A DNA stretch of 64,000 bases from Escherichia coli. GTDB lineage: Bacteria; Pseudomonadota; Gammaproteobacteria; Enterobacterales; Enterobacteriaceae. How positions within the stretch are numbered: position 1 is the stretch's first letter; each line of letters begins with the position of its first letter. Positions 53,410 through 64,000 of this stretch are shown here, one piece after another. Location of the stretch: the NCBI RefSeq assembly GCF_009931435.1, contig NZ_CP043414.1; one strand, given 5' to 3'. The notes under the pieces are model-generated. The model was not told the origin of the DNA, did not search any database, and was given only the letters and a program-made list of their open reading frames with translations. The translations under genes and the position numbers were made by a program.

Positions 53410-56040
53410 ATGAGCAAGAGCACCGCTGAGATCCGTCAGGCGTTTCTCGACTTTTTCCATAGTAAGGGACATCAGGTAGTTGCCAGCAGCTCCCTGGTAC
53501 CCCATAACGACCCAACTTTGTTGTTTACCAACGCCGGGATGAACCAGTTCAAGGATGTGTTCCTTGGGCTCGACAAGCGTAATTATTCCCGCGCTACCAC
53601 TTCCCAACGCTGCGTGCGTGCGGGTGGTAAACACAACGACCTGGAAAACGTCGGTTACACCGCGCGTCACCATACCTTCTTCGAAATGCTGGGCAACTTC
53701 AGCTTCGGCGACTATTTCAAACACGATGCTATTCAGTTTGCATGGGAACTGCTGACCAGCGAAAAATGGTTTGCCCTGCCGAAAGAGCGTCTGTGGGTTA
53801 CCGTCTATGAAAGCGACGACGAAGCCTACGAAATCTGGGAAAAAGAAGTAGGGATCCCGCGCGAACGTATTATTCGCATCGGCGATAACAAAGGTGCGCC
53901 ATACGCATCTGACAACTTCTGGCAGATGGGTGACACTGGTCCGTGTGGCCCGTGCACCGAAATCTTCTACGATCACGGCGACCACATTTGGGGTGGCCCT
54001 CCGGGAAGTCCGGAAGAAGACGGCGATCGCTACATTGAGATCTGGAACATCGTCTTCATGCAGTTCAACCGCCAGGCAGATGGTACGATGGAACCGCTGC
54101 CGAAGCCGTCTGTGGATACCGGTATGGGGCTGGAACGTATTGCTGCGGTGCTGCAACACGTTAACTCTAACTATGACATCGACCTGTTCCGCACGCTGAT
54201 CCAGGAGGTAGCGAAAGTCACTGGCGCGACCGATCTGAGCAATAAATCGCTGCGCGTAATCGCTGACCACATTCGTTCTTGTGCGTTCCTGATCGCGGAT
54301 GGCGTAATGCCGTCCAACGAAAACCGTGGTTATGTACTGCGTCGTATCATTCGTCGCGCAGTGCGTCACGGCAATATGCTGGGCGCGAAAGAAACTTTCT
54401 TCTACAAACTGGTTGGTCCGCTGATCGACGTTATGGGCTCTGCGGGTGAAGACCTGAAACGCCAGCAGGCACAGGTTGAGCAGGTGCTGAAGACTGAAGA
54501 AGAACAGTTTGCCCGCACTCTGGAGCGCGGTCTGGCGCTGCTGGACGAAGAGCTGGCGAAACTTTCTGGCGATACGCTGGATGGCGAAACTGCTTTCCGT
54601 CTGTACGACACCTACGGTTTCCCAGTTGACCTGACGGCTGATGTTTGTCGTGAACGCAACATCAAAGTTGACGAAGCTGGTTTTGAAGCAGCAATGGAAG
54701 AGCAGCGTCGTCGTGCGCGCGAAGCCAGCGGCTTTGGTGCCGATTACAACGCAATGATCCGTGTTGACAGTGCATCTGAATTTAAAGGCTATGACCATCT
54801 GGAAGTGAACGGCAAAGTGACTGCGCTGTTTGTTGATGGTAAAGCGGTTGATGCCATCAATGCAGGCCAGGAAGCGGTAGTCGTGCTGGATCAAACGCCA
54901 TTCTATGCGGAATCTGGCGGTCAGGTTGGCGATAAAGGCGAACTGAAAGGCGTTAACTTCTCCTTTGCGGTGGAAGATACGCAGAAATACGGCCAGGCGA
55001 TTGGTCACATCGGTAAACTTGCTGCGGGTTCTCTGAAAGTGGGCGACGCGGTGCAGGCTGATGTTGATGAGGCTCGTCGCGCTCGTATTCGTCTGAATCA
55101 CTCCGCAACGCACCTGATGCACGCTGCGCTGCGCCAGGTTTTGGGTACTCATGTATCGCAGAAAGGTTCACTGGTTAACGACAAAGTGCTGCGCTTCGAC
55201 TTCTCACACAACGAAGCGATGAAACCAGAAGAGATTCGTGCGGTTGAAGACCTGGTGAACGCGCAGATTCGCCGTAACTTGCCGATCGAAACCAACATCA
55301 TGGATCTCGAAGCGGCGAAAGCGAAAGGTGCGATGGCTCTGTTTGGCGAGAAGTATGATGAGCGCGTACGCGTGCTGAGCATGGGCGATTTCTCCACCGA
55401 GCTGTGTGGCGGTACTCACGCCAGCCGCACCGGTGATATTGGTCTGTTCCGCATCATCTCTGAATCGGGTACTGCTGCAGGTGTTCGTCGTATCGAAGCG
55501 GTAACCGGAGAAGGCGCTATCGCCACCGTTCATGCAGACAGCGATCGCTTAAGCGAAGTCGCACATCTGCTGAAAGGCGATAGCAATAATGTGGCTGATA
55601 AAGTGCGTTCAGTACTGGAACGTACGCGTCAGCTGGAAAAAGAGTTACAACAGCTTAAAGAACAAGCAGCCGCACAGGAGAGCGCAAATCTTTCCATTAA
55701 GGCAATTGATGTTAATGGTGTTAAGCTGTTGGTTAGCGAGCTTAGCGGTGTTGAGCCGAAAATGTTGCGTACCATGGTTGACGATTTAAAAAATCAGCTG
55801 GGGTCGACAATTATCGTGCTGGCAACGGTAGCCGAAGGTAAGGTTTCTCTGATTGCAGGCGTATCTAAGGACGTCACAGATCGTGTGAAAGCAGGGGAAC
55901 TGATTGGTATGGTCGCTCAGCAGGTGGGCGGCAAGGGTGGTGGACGTCCTGACATGGCGCAAGCCGGTGGTACGGATGCTGCGGCCTTACCTGCAGCGTT
56001 AGCCAGTGTGAAAGGCTGGGTCAGCGCGAAATTGCAATAA
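53410..56040 (+). CDS. alaS: alanine--tRNA ligase
   Basis: 876-aa [27 protein letters not shown]…; class II aaRS. Confidence 0.98.
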
Positions 56041-56274
56041 TATAAGCGCCAGGCAATGCCGTGGACTCGCTTCACGGCATTCGCATTAACGCTATCGACA
56101 ACGATAAAGTCAGGTTGAAGTTGTGTATATCGGCTAAACTTAGGTTTAACAGAATGTAATGCCATGACTGCTTACATGTAATGTGTTTGTCATTGCTTAC
56201 TTTTTGGCGTTATATGATGGATAATGCCGGGATACAGAGAGACCCGACTCTTTTAATCTTTCAAGGAGCAAAGA

Positions 56275-56460
56275 ATGCTGATTCTGACTCGTCGAGTTGG
56301 TGAGACCCTCATGATTGGGGATGAGGTCACCGTGACAGTTTTAGGGGTAAAGGGCAACCAGGTACGTATTGGCGTAAATGCCCCGAAGGAAGTTTCTGTT
56401 CACCGTGAAGAGATCTACCAGCGTATCCAGGCTGAAAAATCCCAGCAGTCCAGTTACTAA
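56275..56460 (+). CDS. csrA: carbon storage regulator CsrA
   Basis: 61-aa [51 protein letters not shown]…. Confidence 0.98.
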
Positions 56461-56684
56461 TCTTTCCGCGTCTCATCTTTATCGGTGAGACGCACCCTCA
56501 AAATTCCTCCTTCACTCCATTGTTTTTTCGCTTTACTCCCGTTCATTCAACTTTAGTCTCCATTTTTTGCATTACTGCTATCTGTCAGACCTCCGTTTTT
56601 CTGTTGATAAAACACTCTTTTTGACGTTTTTACAGACTAATTGAGTGTGAATTGTGCAAACGATAAAAGTGTGGGAAAAATTGT

Positions 56685-56712
56685 TTGACTTATAAGTCTC
56701 AGAAAGTAATAT
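56685..56712 (+). promoter_or_regulatory. sigma70 promoter of the serV-arg tRNA operon
   Basis: TTGACT-N16-TAATAT followed by GC-rich discriminator gcgcc, about 60 bp upstream of tRNA-Ser. Confidence 0.6.
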
Positions 56713-56774
56713 GTGCGCCACGCAGCGACGATGAGCGATAAACAAGTTCTTCGAAGCACTCGTAAGAGGCGTGT

Positions 56775-56867
56775 GGTGAGGTGGCCGAGAGGCTGAAGGC
56801 GCTCCCCTGCTAAGGGAGTATGCGGTCAAAAGCTGCATCCGGGGTTCGAATCCCCGCCTCACCGCCA
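56775..56867 (+). tRNA. serV: tRNA-Ser (anticodon GCU)
   Basis: 93-nt sequence ggtgaggtggccgagaggctgaaggcgctcccctgctaagggag…cgcctcaccgcca with long variable arm, anticodon loop cuGCUaa, encoded CCA. Confidence 0.95.
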
Positions 56868-56870
56868 TTT

Positions 56871-56947
56871 GCATCCGTAGCTCAGCTGGATAGAGTACTC
56901 GGCTACGAACCGAGCGGTCGGAGGTTCGAATCCTCCCGGATGCACCA
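56871..56947 (+). tRNA. argV: tRNA-Arg (anticodon ACG), copy 1
   Basis: 77-nt gcatccgtagctcagctggatagagtactcggctACGaaccgagcggtcggaggttcgaatcctcccggatgcacca. Confidence 0.95.
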
Positions 56948-57146
56948 TATTCTACGAAATCTTCAGCAATGAAGGTGTCGAAGAGGTGGCGGTACTAACC
57001 GCAAGCACCAGGGAGGATAACGTTGCTTTAGCAACGGCCCGAAGGGCGAGCCGTAAGGCGAGTAATCCTCCCGGATGCACCATCTCTTACTTGATACGGC
57101 TTTAGTAGCGGTATCAAAAAATCTGCAGTAAAGTAAGTTTCCCGAT

Positions 57147-57223
57147 GCATCCGTAGCTCAGCTGGATAGAGTACTCGGCTACGAACCGAGCGGTCGGAGG
57201 TTCGAATCCTCCCGGATGCACCA
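57147..57223 (+). tRNA. argY: tRNA-Arg (ACG), copy 2
   Basis: Identical 77-nt sequence. Confidence 0.95.
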
Positions 57224-57286
57224 TCTCTTACTTGATATGGCTTTAGTAGCGATATCAATATCAGCAGTAAAGTAAGTTCTCCCGAT

Positions 57287-57363
57287 GCATCCGTAGCTCA
57301 GCTGGATAGAGTACTCGGCTACGAACCGAGCGGTCGGAGGTTCGAATCCTCCCGGATGCACCA
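57287..57363 (+). tRNA. argZ: tRNA-Arg (ACG), copy 3
   Basis: Identical 77-nt sequence. Confidence 0.95.
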
Positions 57364-57561
57364 TATTCTCCGAAATCTTCAGCAATGAAGATATCGAAGA
57401 GGTAGCGGAATTAACCGCAGGCACCAGGAAGGATAACGTTGCTTTAGCAACGGCCCGAAGGGCGAGCCGCAAGGCGAGTAATCCTCCCGGATGCACCATC
57501 TCTTATTTGATATGGCTTTAGTAGCGGTATCAATATCAGCAGTAAAGTAATTTCTCCCGAT

Positions 57562-57638
57562 GCATCCGTAGCTCAGCTGGATAGAGTACTCGGCTACGAA
57601 CCGAGCGGTCGGAGGTTCGAATCCTCCCGGATGCACCA
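57562..57638 (+). tRNA. argQ: tRNA-Arg (ACG), copy 4
   Basis: Identical 77-nt sequence. Confidence 0.95.
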
Positions 57639-57918
57639 TATTCTCCGTAATCTTCAGCGATGATGGTATGGAAGAGGCGATGGTAATCACCGTCTGCTCC
57701 AGGGAGGATAACGTTGCGGCAGCAACGGCCCGAAGGGCGAACGCCAGTGAGTCATCCTCCCGGATGCACCATCTTCTGCAAAAAATCCCCTTCAAAAATA
57801 TTTCATTTCTAAATAACTATTTTATCCATTTCCTGAATATTCTTCTCCTTCGCCATCAGCGACAAAATCAAGCAATTACGCTAAAGTAGCGTCATATTTT
57901 TCGACTTGCGAGAAGACC

Positions 57919-58485
57919 ATGTACGAGCGTTATGCAGGTTTAATTTTTGATATGGATGGCACAATCCTGGATACGGAGCCTACGCACCGTAAAGCGTGGC
58001 GCGAAGTATTAGGGCACTACGGTCTTCAGTACGATGTTCAGGCGATGATTGCGCTTAATGGCTCGCCCACGTGGCGCATTGCTCAGGCGATTATTGAACT
58101 GAATCAGGCCGATCTCGACCCGCATGCGCTGGCGCGTGAAAAAACAGAAGCAGTCAGAAGCATGTTACTCGATAGCGTCGAACCACTCCCCCTTGTTGAA
58201 GTGGTGAAAAGCTGGCACGGACGTCGACCAATGGCTGTAGGAACGGGGAGTGAAAGCGCCATCGCTGAGGCACTGCTAACGCACCTGGGATTACGCCGTT
58301 ATTTTGACGCCGTCGTTGCTGCCGATCACGTCAAACATCATAAACCTGCGCCAGACACATTTTTATTGTGCGCGCAGCGTATGGGCGTGCAACCAACGCA
58401 GTGTGTGGTCTTTGAAGATGCCGATTTCGGTATTCAGGCGGCCCGTGCTGCAGGCATGGACGCTGTGGATGTTCGCTTGCTGTGA
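57919..58485 (+). CDS. yqaB: HAD-family sugar phosphatase (fructose-1-phosphate phosphatase)
   Basis: 188-aa ORF with HAD motif I FDMDGTILDT. Confidence 0.9.
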   Translation: MYERYAGLIFDMDGTILDTEPTHRKAWREVLGHYGLQYDVQAMIALNGSPTWRIAQAIIELNQADLDPHALAREKTEAVRSMLLDSVEPLPLVEVVKSWHGRRPMAVGTGSESAIAEALLTHLGLRRYFDAVVAADHVKHHKPAPDTFLLCAQRMGVQPTQCVVFEDADFGIQAARAAGMDAVDVRLL

Positions 58486-58910
58486 GTGAAGCTTTATCGC
58501 TTTTCTCGTTGTTTGCCAGTAGTTTCCTCAGCGCTACACTATTACCCGGTAATTCCGAAGTCGTGCTGGTTGCAATGTTGCTTTCCGGGGTAAGTCATCC
58601 CTGGGTTTTAGTTTTAACAGCAACAATGGGTAATAGCCTTGGAGGGTTAACTAACGTTATCCTTGGGCGTTTCTTTCCATTGCGTAAAACATCGCGCTGG
58701 CAAGAGAAAGCTACCGGCTGGCTGAAACGCTATGGTGCAGTCACGCTATTATTAAGCTGGATGCCCGTGGTTGGCGATTTACTGTGTCTGTTAGCGGGAT
58801 GGATGCGCATCTCCTGGGGGCCAGTAATCTTTTTTTTGTGCCTTGGTAAAGCGTTACGCTATGTTGCAGTTGCAGCAGCGACCGTTCAGGGCATGATGTG
58901 GTGGCACTAA
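58482..58910 (+). CDS. yqaA: DedA/SNARE-associated-family inner membrane protein
   Basis: 142-aa membrane ORF overlapping the yqaB stop. Confidence 0.88.
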   Translation: MSEALSLFSLFASSFLSATLLPGNSEVVLVAMLLSGVSHPWVLVLTATMGNSLGGLTNVILGRFFPLRKTSRWQEKATGWLKRYGAVTLLLSWMPVVGDLLCLLAGWMRISWGPVIFFLCLGKALRYVAVAAATVQGMMWWH

Positions 58911-58955
58911 TTGTAGGCCTGCACACATGGTCACCATTACAGTTATGCTAATTAA

Positions 58956-60539
<1,584 letters not shown>

Positions 60540-60547
60540 CAGAAAAG

Positions 60548-60620
60548 AAAAAGGCCACTCGTGAGTGGCCAAAATTTCATCTCTGAATTCAGGGATGATG
60601 ATAACAAATGCGCGTCTTTC
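60548..60620 (-). ncRNA. micA: MicA (SraD) sRNA
   Basis: Minus strand reads GAAAGACGCGCATTTGTTATCATCATCCCTGAATTCAGAGATGAAATTTTGGCCACTCACGAGTGGCCTTTTT, matching MicA including its terminator hairpin; lies between gshA and luxS. Confidence 0.9.
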
Positions 60621-60626
60621 ATATAC

Positions 60627-60654
60627 TCAGACTCGCCTGGGAAGAAAGAGTTCA
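60627..60654 (-). promoter_or_regulatory. sigmaE-type promoter of micA
   Basis: Minus strand: TGAACTC (-35) then 16 bp then TCTGA (-10), ending 7 nt before the MicA 5' end. Confidence 0.65.
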
Positions 60655-60688
60655 GAAAATTTTTAAAAAAATTACCGGAGGTGGCTAA

Positions 60689-61204
60689 ATGCCGTTGTTA
60701 GATAGCTTCACAGTCGATCATACCCGGATGGAAGCGCCTGCAGTTCGGGTGGCGAAAACAATGAACACCCCGCATGGCGACGCAATCACCGTGTTCGATC
60801 TGCGCTTCTGCGTGCCGAACAAAGAAGTGATGCCAGAAAGAGGGATCCATACCCTGGAGCACCTGTTTGCTGGTTTTATGCGTAACCATCTTAACGGTAA
60901 TGGCGTTGAGATTATCGATATCTCGCCAATGGGCTGCCGCACCGGTTTTTATATGAGTCTGATTGGTACGCCAGATGAGCAGCGTGTTGCTGATGCCTGG
61001 AAAGCGGCAATGGAAGACGTGCTGAAAGTGCAGGATCAGAATCAGATCCCGGAACTGAACGTCTACCAGTGTGGTACTTATCAGATGCATTCGTTGCAGG
61101 AAGCGCAGGATATTGCGCGTAATATCCTGGAACGTGACGTACGCATCAACAGCAACGAAGAGTTGGCGCTGCCGAAAGAAAAGTTGCAGGAATTGCACAT
61201 CTAG
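60689..61204 (+). CDS. luxS: S-ribosylhomocysteine lyase (AI-2 synthase)
   Basis: 171-aa ORF with the HxxEH metal motif (HTLEHLFAG). Confidence 0.97.
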
Positions 61205-61216
61205 TCAATTGAAGAG

Positions 61217-61247
61217 GCCGGGCAGGTGATATCACCGCCCGGTTTTT
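61217..61247. terminator. hairpin terminator between convergent luxS and the HD-Pnk gene
   Basis: gccgggcaggtga/tatcaccgcccgg followed by ttttta. Confidence 0.6.
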
Positions 61248-61248
61248 A

Positions 61249-62361
61249 TTACCTGTCAGTCACCCGATATTCCACGCTATGTGCTTCATCAGGTTGAGGA
61301 ACTTCCAGCCTTGAGGCCATCCGCATCACGACCGCTTCAGGAACGGCATACTCGCGCCTGGCATTTTGCTGCTTCCATTGCGCCCACGGTACTTCCAGAT
61401 AAACGATTTTTACTCGTGCACCGTAAGCCGTAAACAGACTGATGAGCTGGCTACGCAACTGGCGGGTAATGTTCGTTGCATTCCAGATGAACGGCTTCTT
61501 CTGGCGTAAAAAAACGCGCGCTTCTTCTTTTGCCTGTTGCACAATACGCCCGGTGGCGGTTTTGTCGTCCGGACTGGCATTGATTCGCCGCCGCATATCA
61601 TCAAGGCTGATAACGTTCACTCTCTGGCACTGTTCACTGATAAAGCGATCTTTGCCCATACCCGGTAAACCACACAGCAAAATAACCTCAAAAGATTCAG
61701 CCTCCCAGGGAACAAAATCAGGAGAACTTTGTTCATGGGTCAGGTAATGCCAGCGTGCGGAATCCGAAGCGAATGAACGCACTTTTCCCCAGCATTGTTG
61801 CTCCTGGCAAAATAGCTTGAACAGATCGATGCGTTCCAGCATTGATTGCTGATCATGACAATGGCGACCAAGCAGATCGGCACGAGCAAGCAAAGCGAGC
61901 AGACGCGTGTCGATACGCATTGCAGCCGTGAGCAGCAAACGCTCCGGTTCCGGACGTTCCAGTAACCATAGCGGTAACCCATGCAGACGCACCAGTGCAA
62001 CAATTTGCTCGCGTAGCACGAACGGTGTCGGGATATCGCGCCATAAAATTTGTCGGGCCGTCAATTCACCCCGACGAGCATGACCAGGGGACTGAATACG
62101 TCCGTTTTCCTGCACGGTAGTACTGCGCTTTTCAACGTCATGCAATAACGCCGCCGCCCATAAAATTTCCTGCTGCTGAGCGGGGAGTTGCTGAAACTCA
62201 GCCATCGCAACGAGTGCGTTCAGCACCATTTCAGTATGCACACCAACGTCGCCTTCACCATGATGCTCCGGGTCTTGCGGCGTGTTATGCATATCCTCAA
62301 CCCAGCTAAAACGCTGGCGTAGCGTCGACCAGCGTTTGTCGTCGGTAAGTTGCCAAATCAT
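61249..62361 (-). CDS. HD-domain phosphoesterase fused to a P-loop polynucleotide-kinase-like domain (HD-Pnk-type end-healing enzyme)
   Basis: 370-aa ORF; N-terminal HD signature (…[12 protein letters not shown]… and …AALLHDVEK…); C-terminal P-loop …[15 protein letters not shown]… followed by …[10 protein letters not shown]…; start overlaps the ligase stop (ATGA). Absent from the K-12 luxS-emrB junction. Confidence 0.7.
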
Positions 62362-63065
62362 GACTGTTCTCCATAAGCGAACTCATGGGCCATCCGCGCC
62401 CGTCGCCAGTGGCGTTTCCAGTGCTCGGTGGTTTTGACATGATTTTTGCGTACATACTTGAAGACGTTATGCGAAAAGTCAGCGACGGAAAACGCATCAC
62501 TATTCCGGCTGACAATGCCTTCCAGCGTACAGGGTTGCCCGGTTTGCGTATCCCAGGGATCGAACGCGCCGCGCGCATTGGTCAGCGCCAGAAAATCACG
62601 TTGCCAGCTTTTTTCATCATTCCCCGGCTGCGGGCCGGAGATTTCGGGAACGCAGGGGAAATCAAACAGAGCGGCGTAAAACTGCACCTCTTCCCAGCTC
62701 AGCCACATATCCTGGCAGCGAACGGCAAACAGATAAAAATCCTGCTCCAGGGCGCGATATTCAATCGAATGAACGGCATAAAGATTTTCACCAAACAACT
62801 CCAGATCGCCGAGATCGTTTTTCAGCGATTGCCAGCGTTGGCGAATTTTATAGGTCCATGCCGATTCCGTTGGCGCGGCATGGGAACGGGCAAACACGCC
62901 GAAGCGATTAAGACAGTTATTTTCGCCGTCGAGTTTTTCAGTATGTACCAACTGCGAAATTGCCTGCATATCTTGCCAGTAACTGGCGTTAATGCGGTCA
63001 TCGCTGGTGGTGCCAGGGGAGAAGGGATAATGCCAGGTTCTCCCGTATTTACGTTGGATAATCAT
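62358..63065 (-). CDS. minimal ATP-dependent polynucleotide (RNA/DNA) ligase, nucleotidyltransferase domain only
   Basis: 235-aa ORF with covalent nucleotidyltransferase motifs: motif [10 protein letters not shown] (KxDG lysine), motif [12 protein letters not shown], motif [10 protein letters not shown], motif V FKYVRK. Confidence 0.7.
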
Positions 63066-63287
63066 AATAATCCATTATTTTGTGTGTAATAAATGTACGC
63101 CCGCGTGGGTGCGAGTTATGGGGTTAAAAGAAAAATGTGAGTATCACCCGCGAAAGCGAGGGCGAAGAAAAAAGAGAGTTAACAACCTGAGCGAATGCTC
63201 AGAACCGATTAATGGTGAATGGAAGAGTTTGGGGCGGCGAAAAGATACACCGTTTGAGATGATAAAACAACCGTTTACAGAATGAGC

Positions 63288-63316
63288 AAATAAAAAGGGA
63301 GCCGCAGCTCCCTTTG
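63288..63316 (-). terminator. rho-independent terminator downstream of emrB
   Basis: Minus strand: aaagggagctgcggctcccttt followed by TTATTTG. Confidence 0.65.
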
Positions 63317-63322
63317 ACAACC

Positions 63323-64000
63323 TTAGTGCGCACCGCCTCCGCCGCCACCTGCGCCAAATGGCGGTTTAGCAAACCACACCAGCCCCAGCAGGACGAGGAA
63401 TATCCCGGCTGACATCCAGAAGATCTCATTGGCGGAAATAATCAGCCCCTGATTAGTGATCTGCTGGGCAATCCAGCCTGATGCCTGTTGTTGCGTCATC
63501 CCCAGCCCTTCCAGTTGGCTGTACATCGCCTGAGCGTTCGGGTTAAACGGGTTTACCGACTCGGTTAACTGTGCGTGGTGCATCGACTCGCGGTTGGTCC
63601 ACATAGTCGTCGTAATGGACGTGCCGATAGATCCCGCCAGCGTTCGCGTAAAGTTGGAGAGACTCGATGCCGCCGCCAGTCGTTCCGGTGGCAAACCGGA
63701 CAGCGTAATGGTGGTCAGCGGCATAAAGAAGCAGGCCACCGCGAAGCCCTGGATAAACTGCGGCCAGGCCGACGCACCAAAATCCATACCCGGTTCAAAG
63801 GTATAGGCACGCCAGTAGAAGCAGACGGCATACATAATAAAGCTGAAGGTTACCAGCCGCCGCATATCCAGTTTATGCGCGAAGCGGCCGATAATCGGCG
63901 ACAGGATCACCGGAATAATCCCTACCGGCGCAGAGGCAAGCCCCGCCCAGGTTGCTGTATAGCCGTAGACTTCTTGCAATAACTGCGGCAGCAGAACAAT
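63323..64000 (-). CDS. emrB: multidrug efflux MFS transporter EmrB, C-terminal part (5' end beyond window)
   Basis: Frame continues to the window edge; membrane protein ending …FAKPPFGAGGGGGGAH; convergent with luxS. Confidence 0.85.
   Translation of the reverse strand: MVLLPQLLQEVYGYTATWAGLASAPVGIIPVILSPIIGRFAHKLDMRRLVTFSFIMYAVCFYWRAYTFEPGMDFGASAWPQFIQGFAVACFFMPLTTITLSGLPPERLAAASSLSNFTRTLAGSIGTSITTTMWTNRESMHHAQLTESVNPFNPNAQAMYSQLEGLGMTQQQASGWIAQQITNQGLIISANEIFWMSAGIFLVLLGLVWFAKPPFGAGGGGGGAH

Follow-up and report, generated by a model that had tools for sequence, protein, structure and literature searches.

The gene micA, formerly named sraD/psrA10, encodes in Escherichia coli K-12 MG1655 the 'small regulatory RNA MicA' (SraD; b4442; Rfam family RF00078) and is located at 2814802-2814874, between luxS and gshA and on the opposite strand. 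Promoters of the sigma-E type carry a GGAACTT-like -35 element and a TCNNA-like -10 element (TCTGA/TCAAA) with an invariant C; the two elements lie about 16 nt apart, and about 6 nt separate the -10 element from the +1. In K-12, MicA was undetectable in a delta-rpoE mutant, and both envelope stresses and overexpression of rpoE induced it; its promoter was described as having the consensus sigma-E signature and, upstream of the -35, an AT-rich element (PMC1851643). The interaction between MicA and ompA in K-12 was established by gel shifts and compensatory mutations, the resulting repression being Hfq-dependent, and ompX, lamB and phoPQ are further direct targets of the RNA (reviewed in PMC4618604). 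Another enterobacterial sRNA, RybB, is likewise sigma-E-dependent, Hfq-dependent and porin-repressing, and it follows the same logic as MicA, namely transcription of a short RNA from a sigma-E promoter and pairing of omp mRNAs with the 5' end of that RNA (PMC1804206). RybB differs from MicA in sequence family and in locus, and it was not found in the Rfam scan of the 64 kb analysed here. VrrA of Vibrio cholerae is about 140 nt long, is unrelated to MicA in sequence and does not strictly require Hfq; it is a functional analogue of MicA, not a homologue.

We analysed a stretch of 64,000 nt of the E. coli contig NZ_CP043414.1 (hereafter the window). According to the open reading frame (ORF) list and the annotation, gshA occupies 58983-60539 and luxS occupies 60689-61204, both on the plus strand, leaving a spacer of 149 nt between them. 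We found micA in this spacer at 60548-60620 on the minus strand, opposite to both neighbours, as the gene of a 72-73 nt small RNA with its +1 G at 60620, as defined by the Rfam match and by identity to K-12. The Rfam search covered 56000-64000 with permissive filters and the whole window at gathering thresholds. RF00078 matched 60549-60620 (minus strand) over the full length of the model (positions 1-75 of 75) with 83.9 bits, about twice the gathering score of 41, and an E-value of 1.7e-12; in all 64 kb, MicA and tRNAs were the only families above threshold. Moreover, the K-12 micA gene mapped to exactly 60548-60620, and alignment of 60530-60700 with K-12 MG1655 showed 100% identity at every base. 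Gene, promoter, whole spacer, neighbours, orientation, structure and terminator are all the same here as in K-12, the only local difference being an insertion of 2.1 kb with two genes (61208-63321), located downstream of luxS and unrelated to micA. At a wider scale, a 401-nt stretch around micA was present at 95% identity or more in 5,423 of 5,426 complete E. coli genomes, with gshA and luxS as the annotations. [quoted passage not shown]

The original prediction had assigned MicA to the minus strand of the gshA-luxS spacer, with its start about 70 bp from the luxS start codon, and had regarded this as a known arrangement that explains an ORF-free stretch. It had named the Rfam MicA covariance model as a check, and the full-length match at 83.9 against 41 bits, together with the K-12 identity, bears the assignment out. 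The distance from the MicA +1 (60620) to the luxS ATG (60689) on the other strand was measured as 69 nt, and the 3' end of MicA lies 9 nt from the gshA stop codon. The arrangement is indeed a known one, given that micA is annotated in K-12 at the same place within the 149-nt spacer, and micA accounts for the lack of ORFs there. The micA gene of this strain is already known and implies no new biology; the value of the result lies in correct annotation only. In the PGAP annotation of two strains that we inspected (e.g. NZ_CP027579.1), the gshA-luxS gap carries no feature at all, and its sequence is identical to K-12. The Rfam-based call supplies the micA gene that is absent from the automatic annotations inspected.

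We then considered the promoter, which had been predicted as a sigma-E-like TGAACTC-N16-TCTGA. This motif was found once in the 64 kb, on the minus strand at 60627-60654; none of 100 dinucleotide-preserving shuffles contained it. Its -35 element TGAACTC is located at 60648-60654 and its -10 element TCTGA at 60627-60631, both on the minus strand and both conserved in 111 loci (see below). The gap between the -10 element and the +1 G at 60620 is 6 nt (GTATAT), and this G is the first base of both the Rfam match and the K-12 gene. The full arrangement, TGAACTC-N16-TCTGA-N6-G(+1), agrees with the promoter pattern of the sigma-E regulon. A stricter sigma-E pattern, GAACTT-N15-17-TCWRA, had no match in the window because the -35 of micA reads GAACTC, and hence its absence is no evidence against the promoter. 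The predicted motif was thus recovered as unique, correctly spaced from the +1, conserved in 111 loci and identical to K-12. We infer from the identity of the promoter to that of K-12 that micA would depend on sigma-E in this strain as well.

To assess conservation, one genome per species was scanned for the MicA seed, which gave 120 loci in Enterobacterales, with Yersinia, Serratia, Pantoea, Erwinia, Dickeya, Pectobacterium, Edwardsiella, Hafnia and Rahnella among the genera sampled. Since these orthologues were gathered with an exact 22-nt seed pattern, the sample is biased to conserved copies and the conservation of the seed itself is not to be read from it. For information content, 111 distinct sequences were anchored at the +1 and compared without gaps. 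The -35 core AACT (-32 to -29) reached 2.0, 1.93, 1.93 and 1.32 bits, the TT that follows the -35 (-27 and -26) reached 1.93 and 1.85 bits, and the -10 region GTCTGA (-12 to -7) reached 1.46, 1.93, 1.93, 1.80, 1.02 and 2.0 bits; the promoter spacer between them (-24 to -17) held 0.14-0.55 bits per position. The C of the -10 element was retained in 110 of the 111 loci, and AAC of the -35 element in 110-111. Boxes that are conserved at a fixed spacing around a freely varying spacer form the pattern expected of a working promoter of the sigma-E type. A conserved T-tract was also identified at micA -50 to -45 (60665-60670, minus strand), with 1.4-1.9 bits per position in the 111 loci; it is the AT-rich element upstream of the -35 that was noted for K-12 (PMC1851643). 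Read on the plus strand, the same tract is an A-tract that directly precedes the Shine-Dalgarno sequence of luxS (ggagg, 60678-60682). The tract could be an UP-like element for micA, an element of the luxS leader, or both.

The same comparison bears on whether the spacer encodes a small protein, for which the mechanical ORF list offers two candidates, a 46-aa ORF at 60561-60701 (plus strand) and a 48-aa ORF at 60476-60622 (minus strand). In close relatives, however, the distance from the +1 to the luxS ATG takes values of 68, 69, 70, 71, 72, 73 nt and so on, in steps that are not multiples of three, indicating that no reading frame is preserved across the promoter region. Moreover, the minus-strand ORF lies partly antisense to the coding sequence of gshA, and conservation tracks the promoter boxes and the stems of the RNA, not codons. 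We therefore give a protein-coding role of either ORF hardly any credence, and the reading of the spacer as an sRNA gene is retained.

Folding of 60545-60620 (minus strand) recovered both Rfam hairpins with -21.2 kcal/mol (z = -3.06 against shuffles). The Rfam structure, the minimum free energy (MFE) and centroid folds and a terminator scan together gave the MicA layout of a single-stranded 5' region, stem-loop 1, an AU-rich linker and a Rho-independent terminator. The single-stranded 5' region comprises nt 1-23 of MicA (60598-60620, minus strand), contains the target-pairing seed and is unpaired in the Rfam consensus structure. A pairing of MicA nt 1-6 with the 3' U-tail in the MFE fold was regarded as an artefact of folding the isolated RNA. 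Stem-loop 1 (60577-60597, minus strand), found in both the Rfam structure and the MFE fold, has the form CAUC-C-CUG / CAG-A-GAUG with an internal C/A mismatch. Among 100 distinct orthologues, its inner stem CTG/CAG was found in 84, the others including a few with G-U changes and one with a compensatory change, and the opposed bases were C/A in 89. The orthologues without C/A comprised 10 with other non-pairing combinations (A/A, A/C, T/C, C/C) and only one (T/A) that could pair. This distribution suggests that the internal mismatch of stem-loop 1 is itself maintained.

The Rho-independent terminator of MicA was located at 60548-60570 (minus strand) by the terminator scan and the fold, as a GC-rich stem of 7 bp (60553-60570) with a U-tail. 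In the terminator scan, the hairpin at 60553-60570 on the minus strand is followed by TTTTTCTTTT, and the T-run is present on this strand only. The outer six pairs, GGCCAC/GTGGCC, were identical in all 100 distinct orthologues, and the 8 nt past the stem contained 6-7 T in every one of them. The seventh pair was A-T in 85, T-A in 8 (E. coli among these) and G-C in 2 of the 100, and by this alignment the change at the seventh pair is compensatory. Covariation is modest overall, and slight in stem-loop 1, because the RNA barely varies.

The position of this hairpin raises the question of whether the spacer consists of a gshA terminator and a luxS promoter or leader only, with the resemblance to MicA being a relic that yields no functional sRNA. 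With the hairpin 13 nt past the gshA stop codon, a role in gshA termination is conceivable in principle, and the luxS leader does traverse the spacer. However, the stem is followed by AAAATTTCATC on the plus strand, the T-run being confined to the minus strand, and selective conservation of the promoter cores is seen on the micA strand, at a fixed spacing to the +1 across genera. Furthermore, the spacer is identical in sequence to the experimentally verified micA of K-12, for which a minus-strand RNA of about 72 nt has already been published. The probability that the element is such a relic is accordingly close to nil, and we proceed with micA as a functional sRNA gene.

The pairing of the MicA 5' region with a target was examined with the K-12 ompA leader (133 nt, extended by the first 60 nt of the gene), which was used because ompA lies outside the window. 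With MicA nt 1-23 alone as the query, nt 7-23 paired with ompA -21 to -5, covering the Shine-Dalgarno sequence, with -19.2 kcal/mol, which reproduces the interaction published for K-12. This energy was equalled by 19 of 1000 shuffled seeds and is therefore only moderately unusual. An RNAduplex run with full-length MicA against the ompA leader returned a sprawling 65-nt 'duplex' that ignored the hairpins of MicA, and it was discarded. In the mechanism that we propose, envelope stress or entry into stationary phase would lead sigma-E RNA polymerase to initiate at G 60620, and transcription would run leftward to the intrinsic terminator at 60548-60570, yielding an Hfq-binding RNA of 72-73 nt. The 5' end of this RNA (about nt 7-23) would pair with ompA and other envelope-related mRNAs (phoP, lamB, ompX and others) at their ribosome-binding regions. 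Such pairing would block translation and hasten mRNA decay, so that fewer outer-membrane proteins would be made during envelope stress. On the basis of the identical sequence, we infer that the strain probably behaves like K-12 in this respect.

Given its position, micA was also compared with the transcripts of luxS. Three luxS mRNA species, P1, P2 and R3, were mapped in K-12 by 5'-RACE and primer extension (Udekwu 2010; PMC2956633). P1 begins with a G at -332, driven by a sigma-S-type promoter within the 3' end of gshA, the 5' ends of P2 fall within micA, and the 5' end of R3 lies at about MicA +14/+15, giving an overlap of 14-15 nt with MicA (PMC2956633). The accumulation of R3 depended on MicA and on RNase III, and overexpression of MicA brought no change in LuxS protein that could be seen (PMC2956633). 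An independent luxS +1 (De Lay & Gottesman 2009) is taken here as relayed by PMC2956633. We placed these ends on the window. The long leader from P1 (PMC2956633) corresponds to 60357-60688 (plus strand) and runs antisense through all of micA; base 60357 is a G, as at the published P1 start, and the sequence at 60319-60358 agrees exactly with both published P1 primers, KU40 and KU41A. The short leader (R3) corresponds to 60606-60688 (plus strand), with its 5' end at about 60606-60607 when converted from MicA +1 = 60620. MicA would then be complementary over its full length to the luxS leaders that start at -332 (P1) and over 14-15 nt to the short leader, and the long duplexes of MicA with luxS leaders would be cut by RNase III. 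A separate match to the sigma-70 consensus at 60598-60627 (plus strand; ATGATA-18-TATACT) was found once against 0.6 expected by chance; the start predicted from it fits neither published luxS 5' end, and we did not take it as a promoter.

These coordinates qualify part of what the original prediction had expected of the two genes. That micA is antisense to the luxS upstream region holds, with published luxS starts at -332 and at about MicA +14/+15 (PMC2956633) and a spacer identical to K-12. The expectation of 'convergent or overlapping transcription' stands in two restricted senses: transcription of micA is convergent only with that from the distal P1, and with the proximal leader there is a divergent 5' overlap of 14-15 nt. 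The micA gene and the luxS coding sequence themselves are divergent (head to head), whereas micA and gshA are convergent, and the convergence with P1 is not deducible from the 70-bp distance alone.

The arrangement was found to be uniform among the orthologues. luxS was located upstream of micA on the opposite strand in 118 of 118 scorable loci, at a distance of 68-180 nt (median 73), and gshA was convergent with micA in all 113 loci that could be scored, its stop codon being at a median of 82 nt from the +1. One reading of this invariance in 118 of 118 loci is that the main selected role of micA is in cis, with luxS controlled by head-on transcriptional interference at P1 and by cleavage of its leader through RNase III, and that the trans role on ompA is secondary. 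The published MicA- and RNase III-dependent processing of luxS transcripts (PMC2956633) fits such a role, and steric interference has been raised as a possibility in a review (PMC4618604). However, LuxS protein was unchanged on MicA overexpression (PMC2956633), and the direct trans targets are numerous and proven by compensatory mutation (PMC4618604). Moreover, the synteny was observed among related genera in a sample picked by MicA seed identity and may be mere inheritance. We consider a main role in cis improbable. A related proposal is that selection acts on the head-to-head position which the micA sigma-E promoter occupies within the luxS leader: firing of this promoter under stress would block or truncate the sigma-S-driven P1 transcripts by polymerase collision and RNase III, and the T/A-tract at 60665-60670 would be shared by both genes. 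If true, envelope stress would be coupled to the output of AI-2 and of the activated methyl cycle. This proposal is slightly less doubtful, yet it too is unlikely in our view, and the idea of a selected micA-luxS coupling has already been raised in the literature. Either way, a cis role on luxS leaves the identity of the element as micA unchanged. In practice, deletions or insertions in the luxS 5' region will disturb micA, which is a known pitfall behind biofilm phenotypes of luxS mutants in Salmonella (PMC4618604).

Several observations were made in the neighbouring regions of the window. A serV-argV-argY-argZ-argQ tRNA cluster was identified at 56775-57771, with one tRNA-Ser and four identical tRNA-Arg genes. 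The repeats between these tRNAs (56955-57082, 57372-57498 and 57660-57771) resemble the RtT RNA family, with 28-30 bits, below its gathering score of 45, and the tRNA genes also gave spurious sub-threshold antisense matches to plastid UTR families.

On the other side of micA, the luxS-emrB interval carries the insertion of about 2.1 kb (61208-63321) where K-12 has a 59-nt spacer. It contains two minus-strand ORFs, 61249-62361 and 62358-63065, that overlap by 4 nt. In the 370-aa product of one, a P-loop kinase domain was recognised (Pfam AAA_33, 1e-31), and its N-terminus weakly matches an HD domain (9e-4, below cut-off); the 235-aa product of the other matches RNA_ligase (PF09414, 6e-28). RefSeq names the pair 'ATP-binding protein' and 'RNA ligase family protein'. 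PADLOC returned no match for either ORF. A kinase, possibly with a phosphoesterase, next to a ligase looks like an RNA-repair pair, as judged from these domain matches. Of 5,426 complete E. coli genomes, 999 carried the pair, always on the chromosome and at the luxS-emrB site in every record inspected. Most copies were about 93.5% identical to that of the window and the best was 98.6% identical, indicating that the window carries a rare allele. Identity to K-12 is 100% over the spacer at 60530-60700, falls to 94% over the last 185 nt of luxS (61023-61207) and is 99.4% at the 3' end of emrB (63322-63477), a sharp change over a short distance, suggesting that a recombination boundary lies within luxS and is linked to the adjacent insertion.
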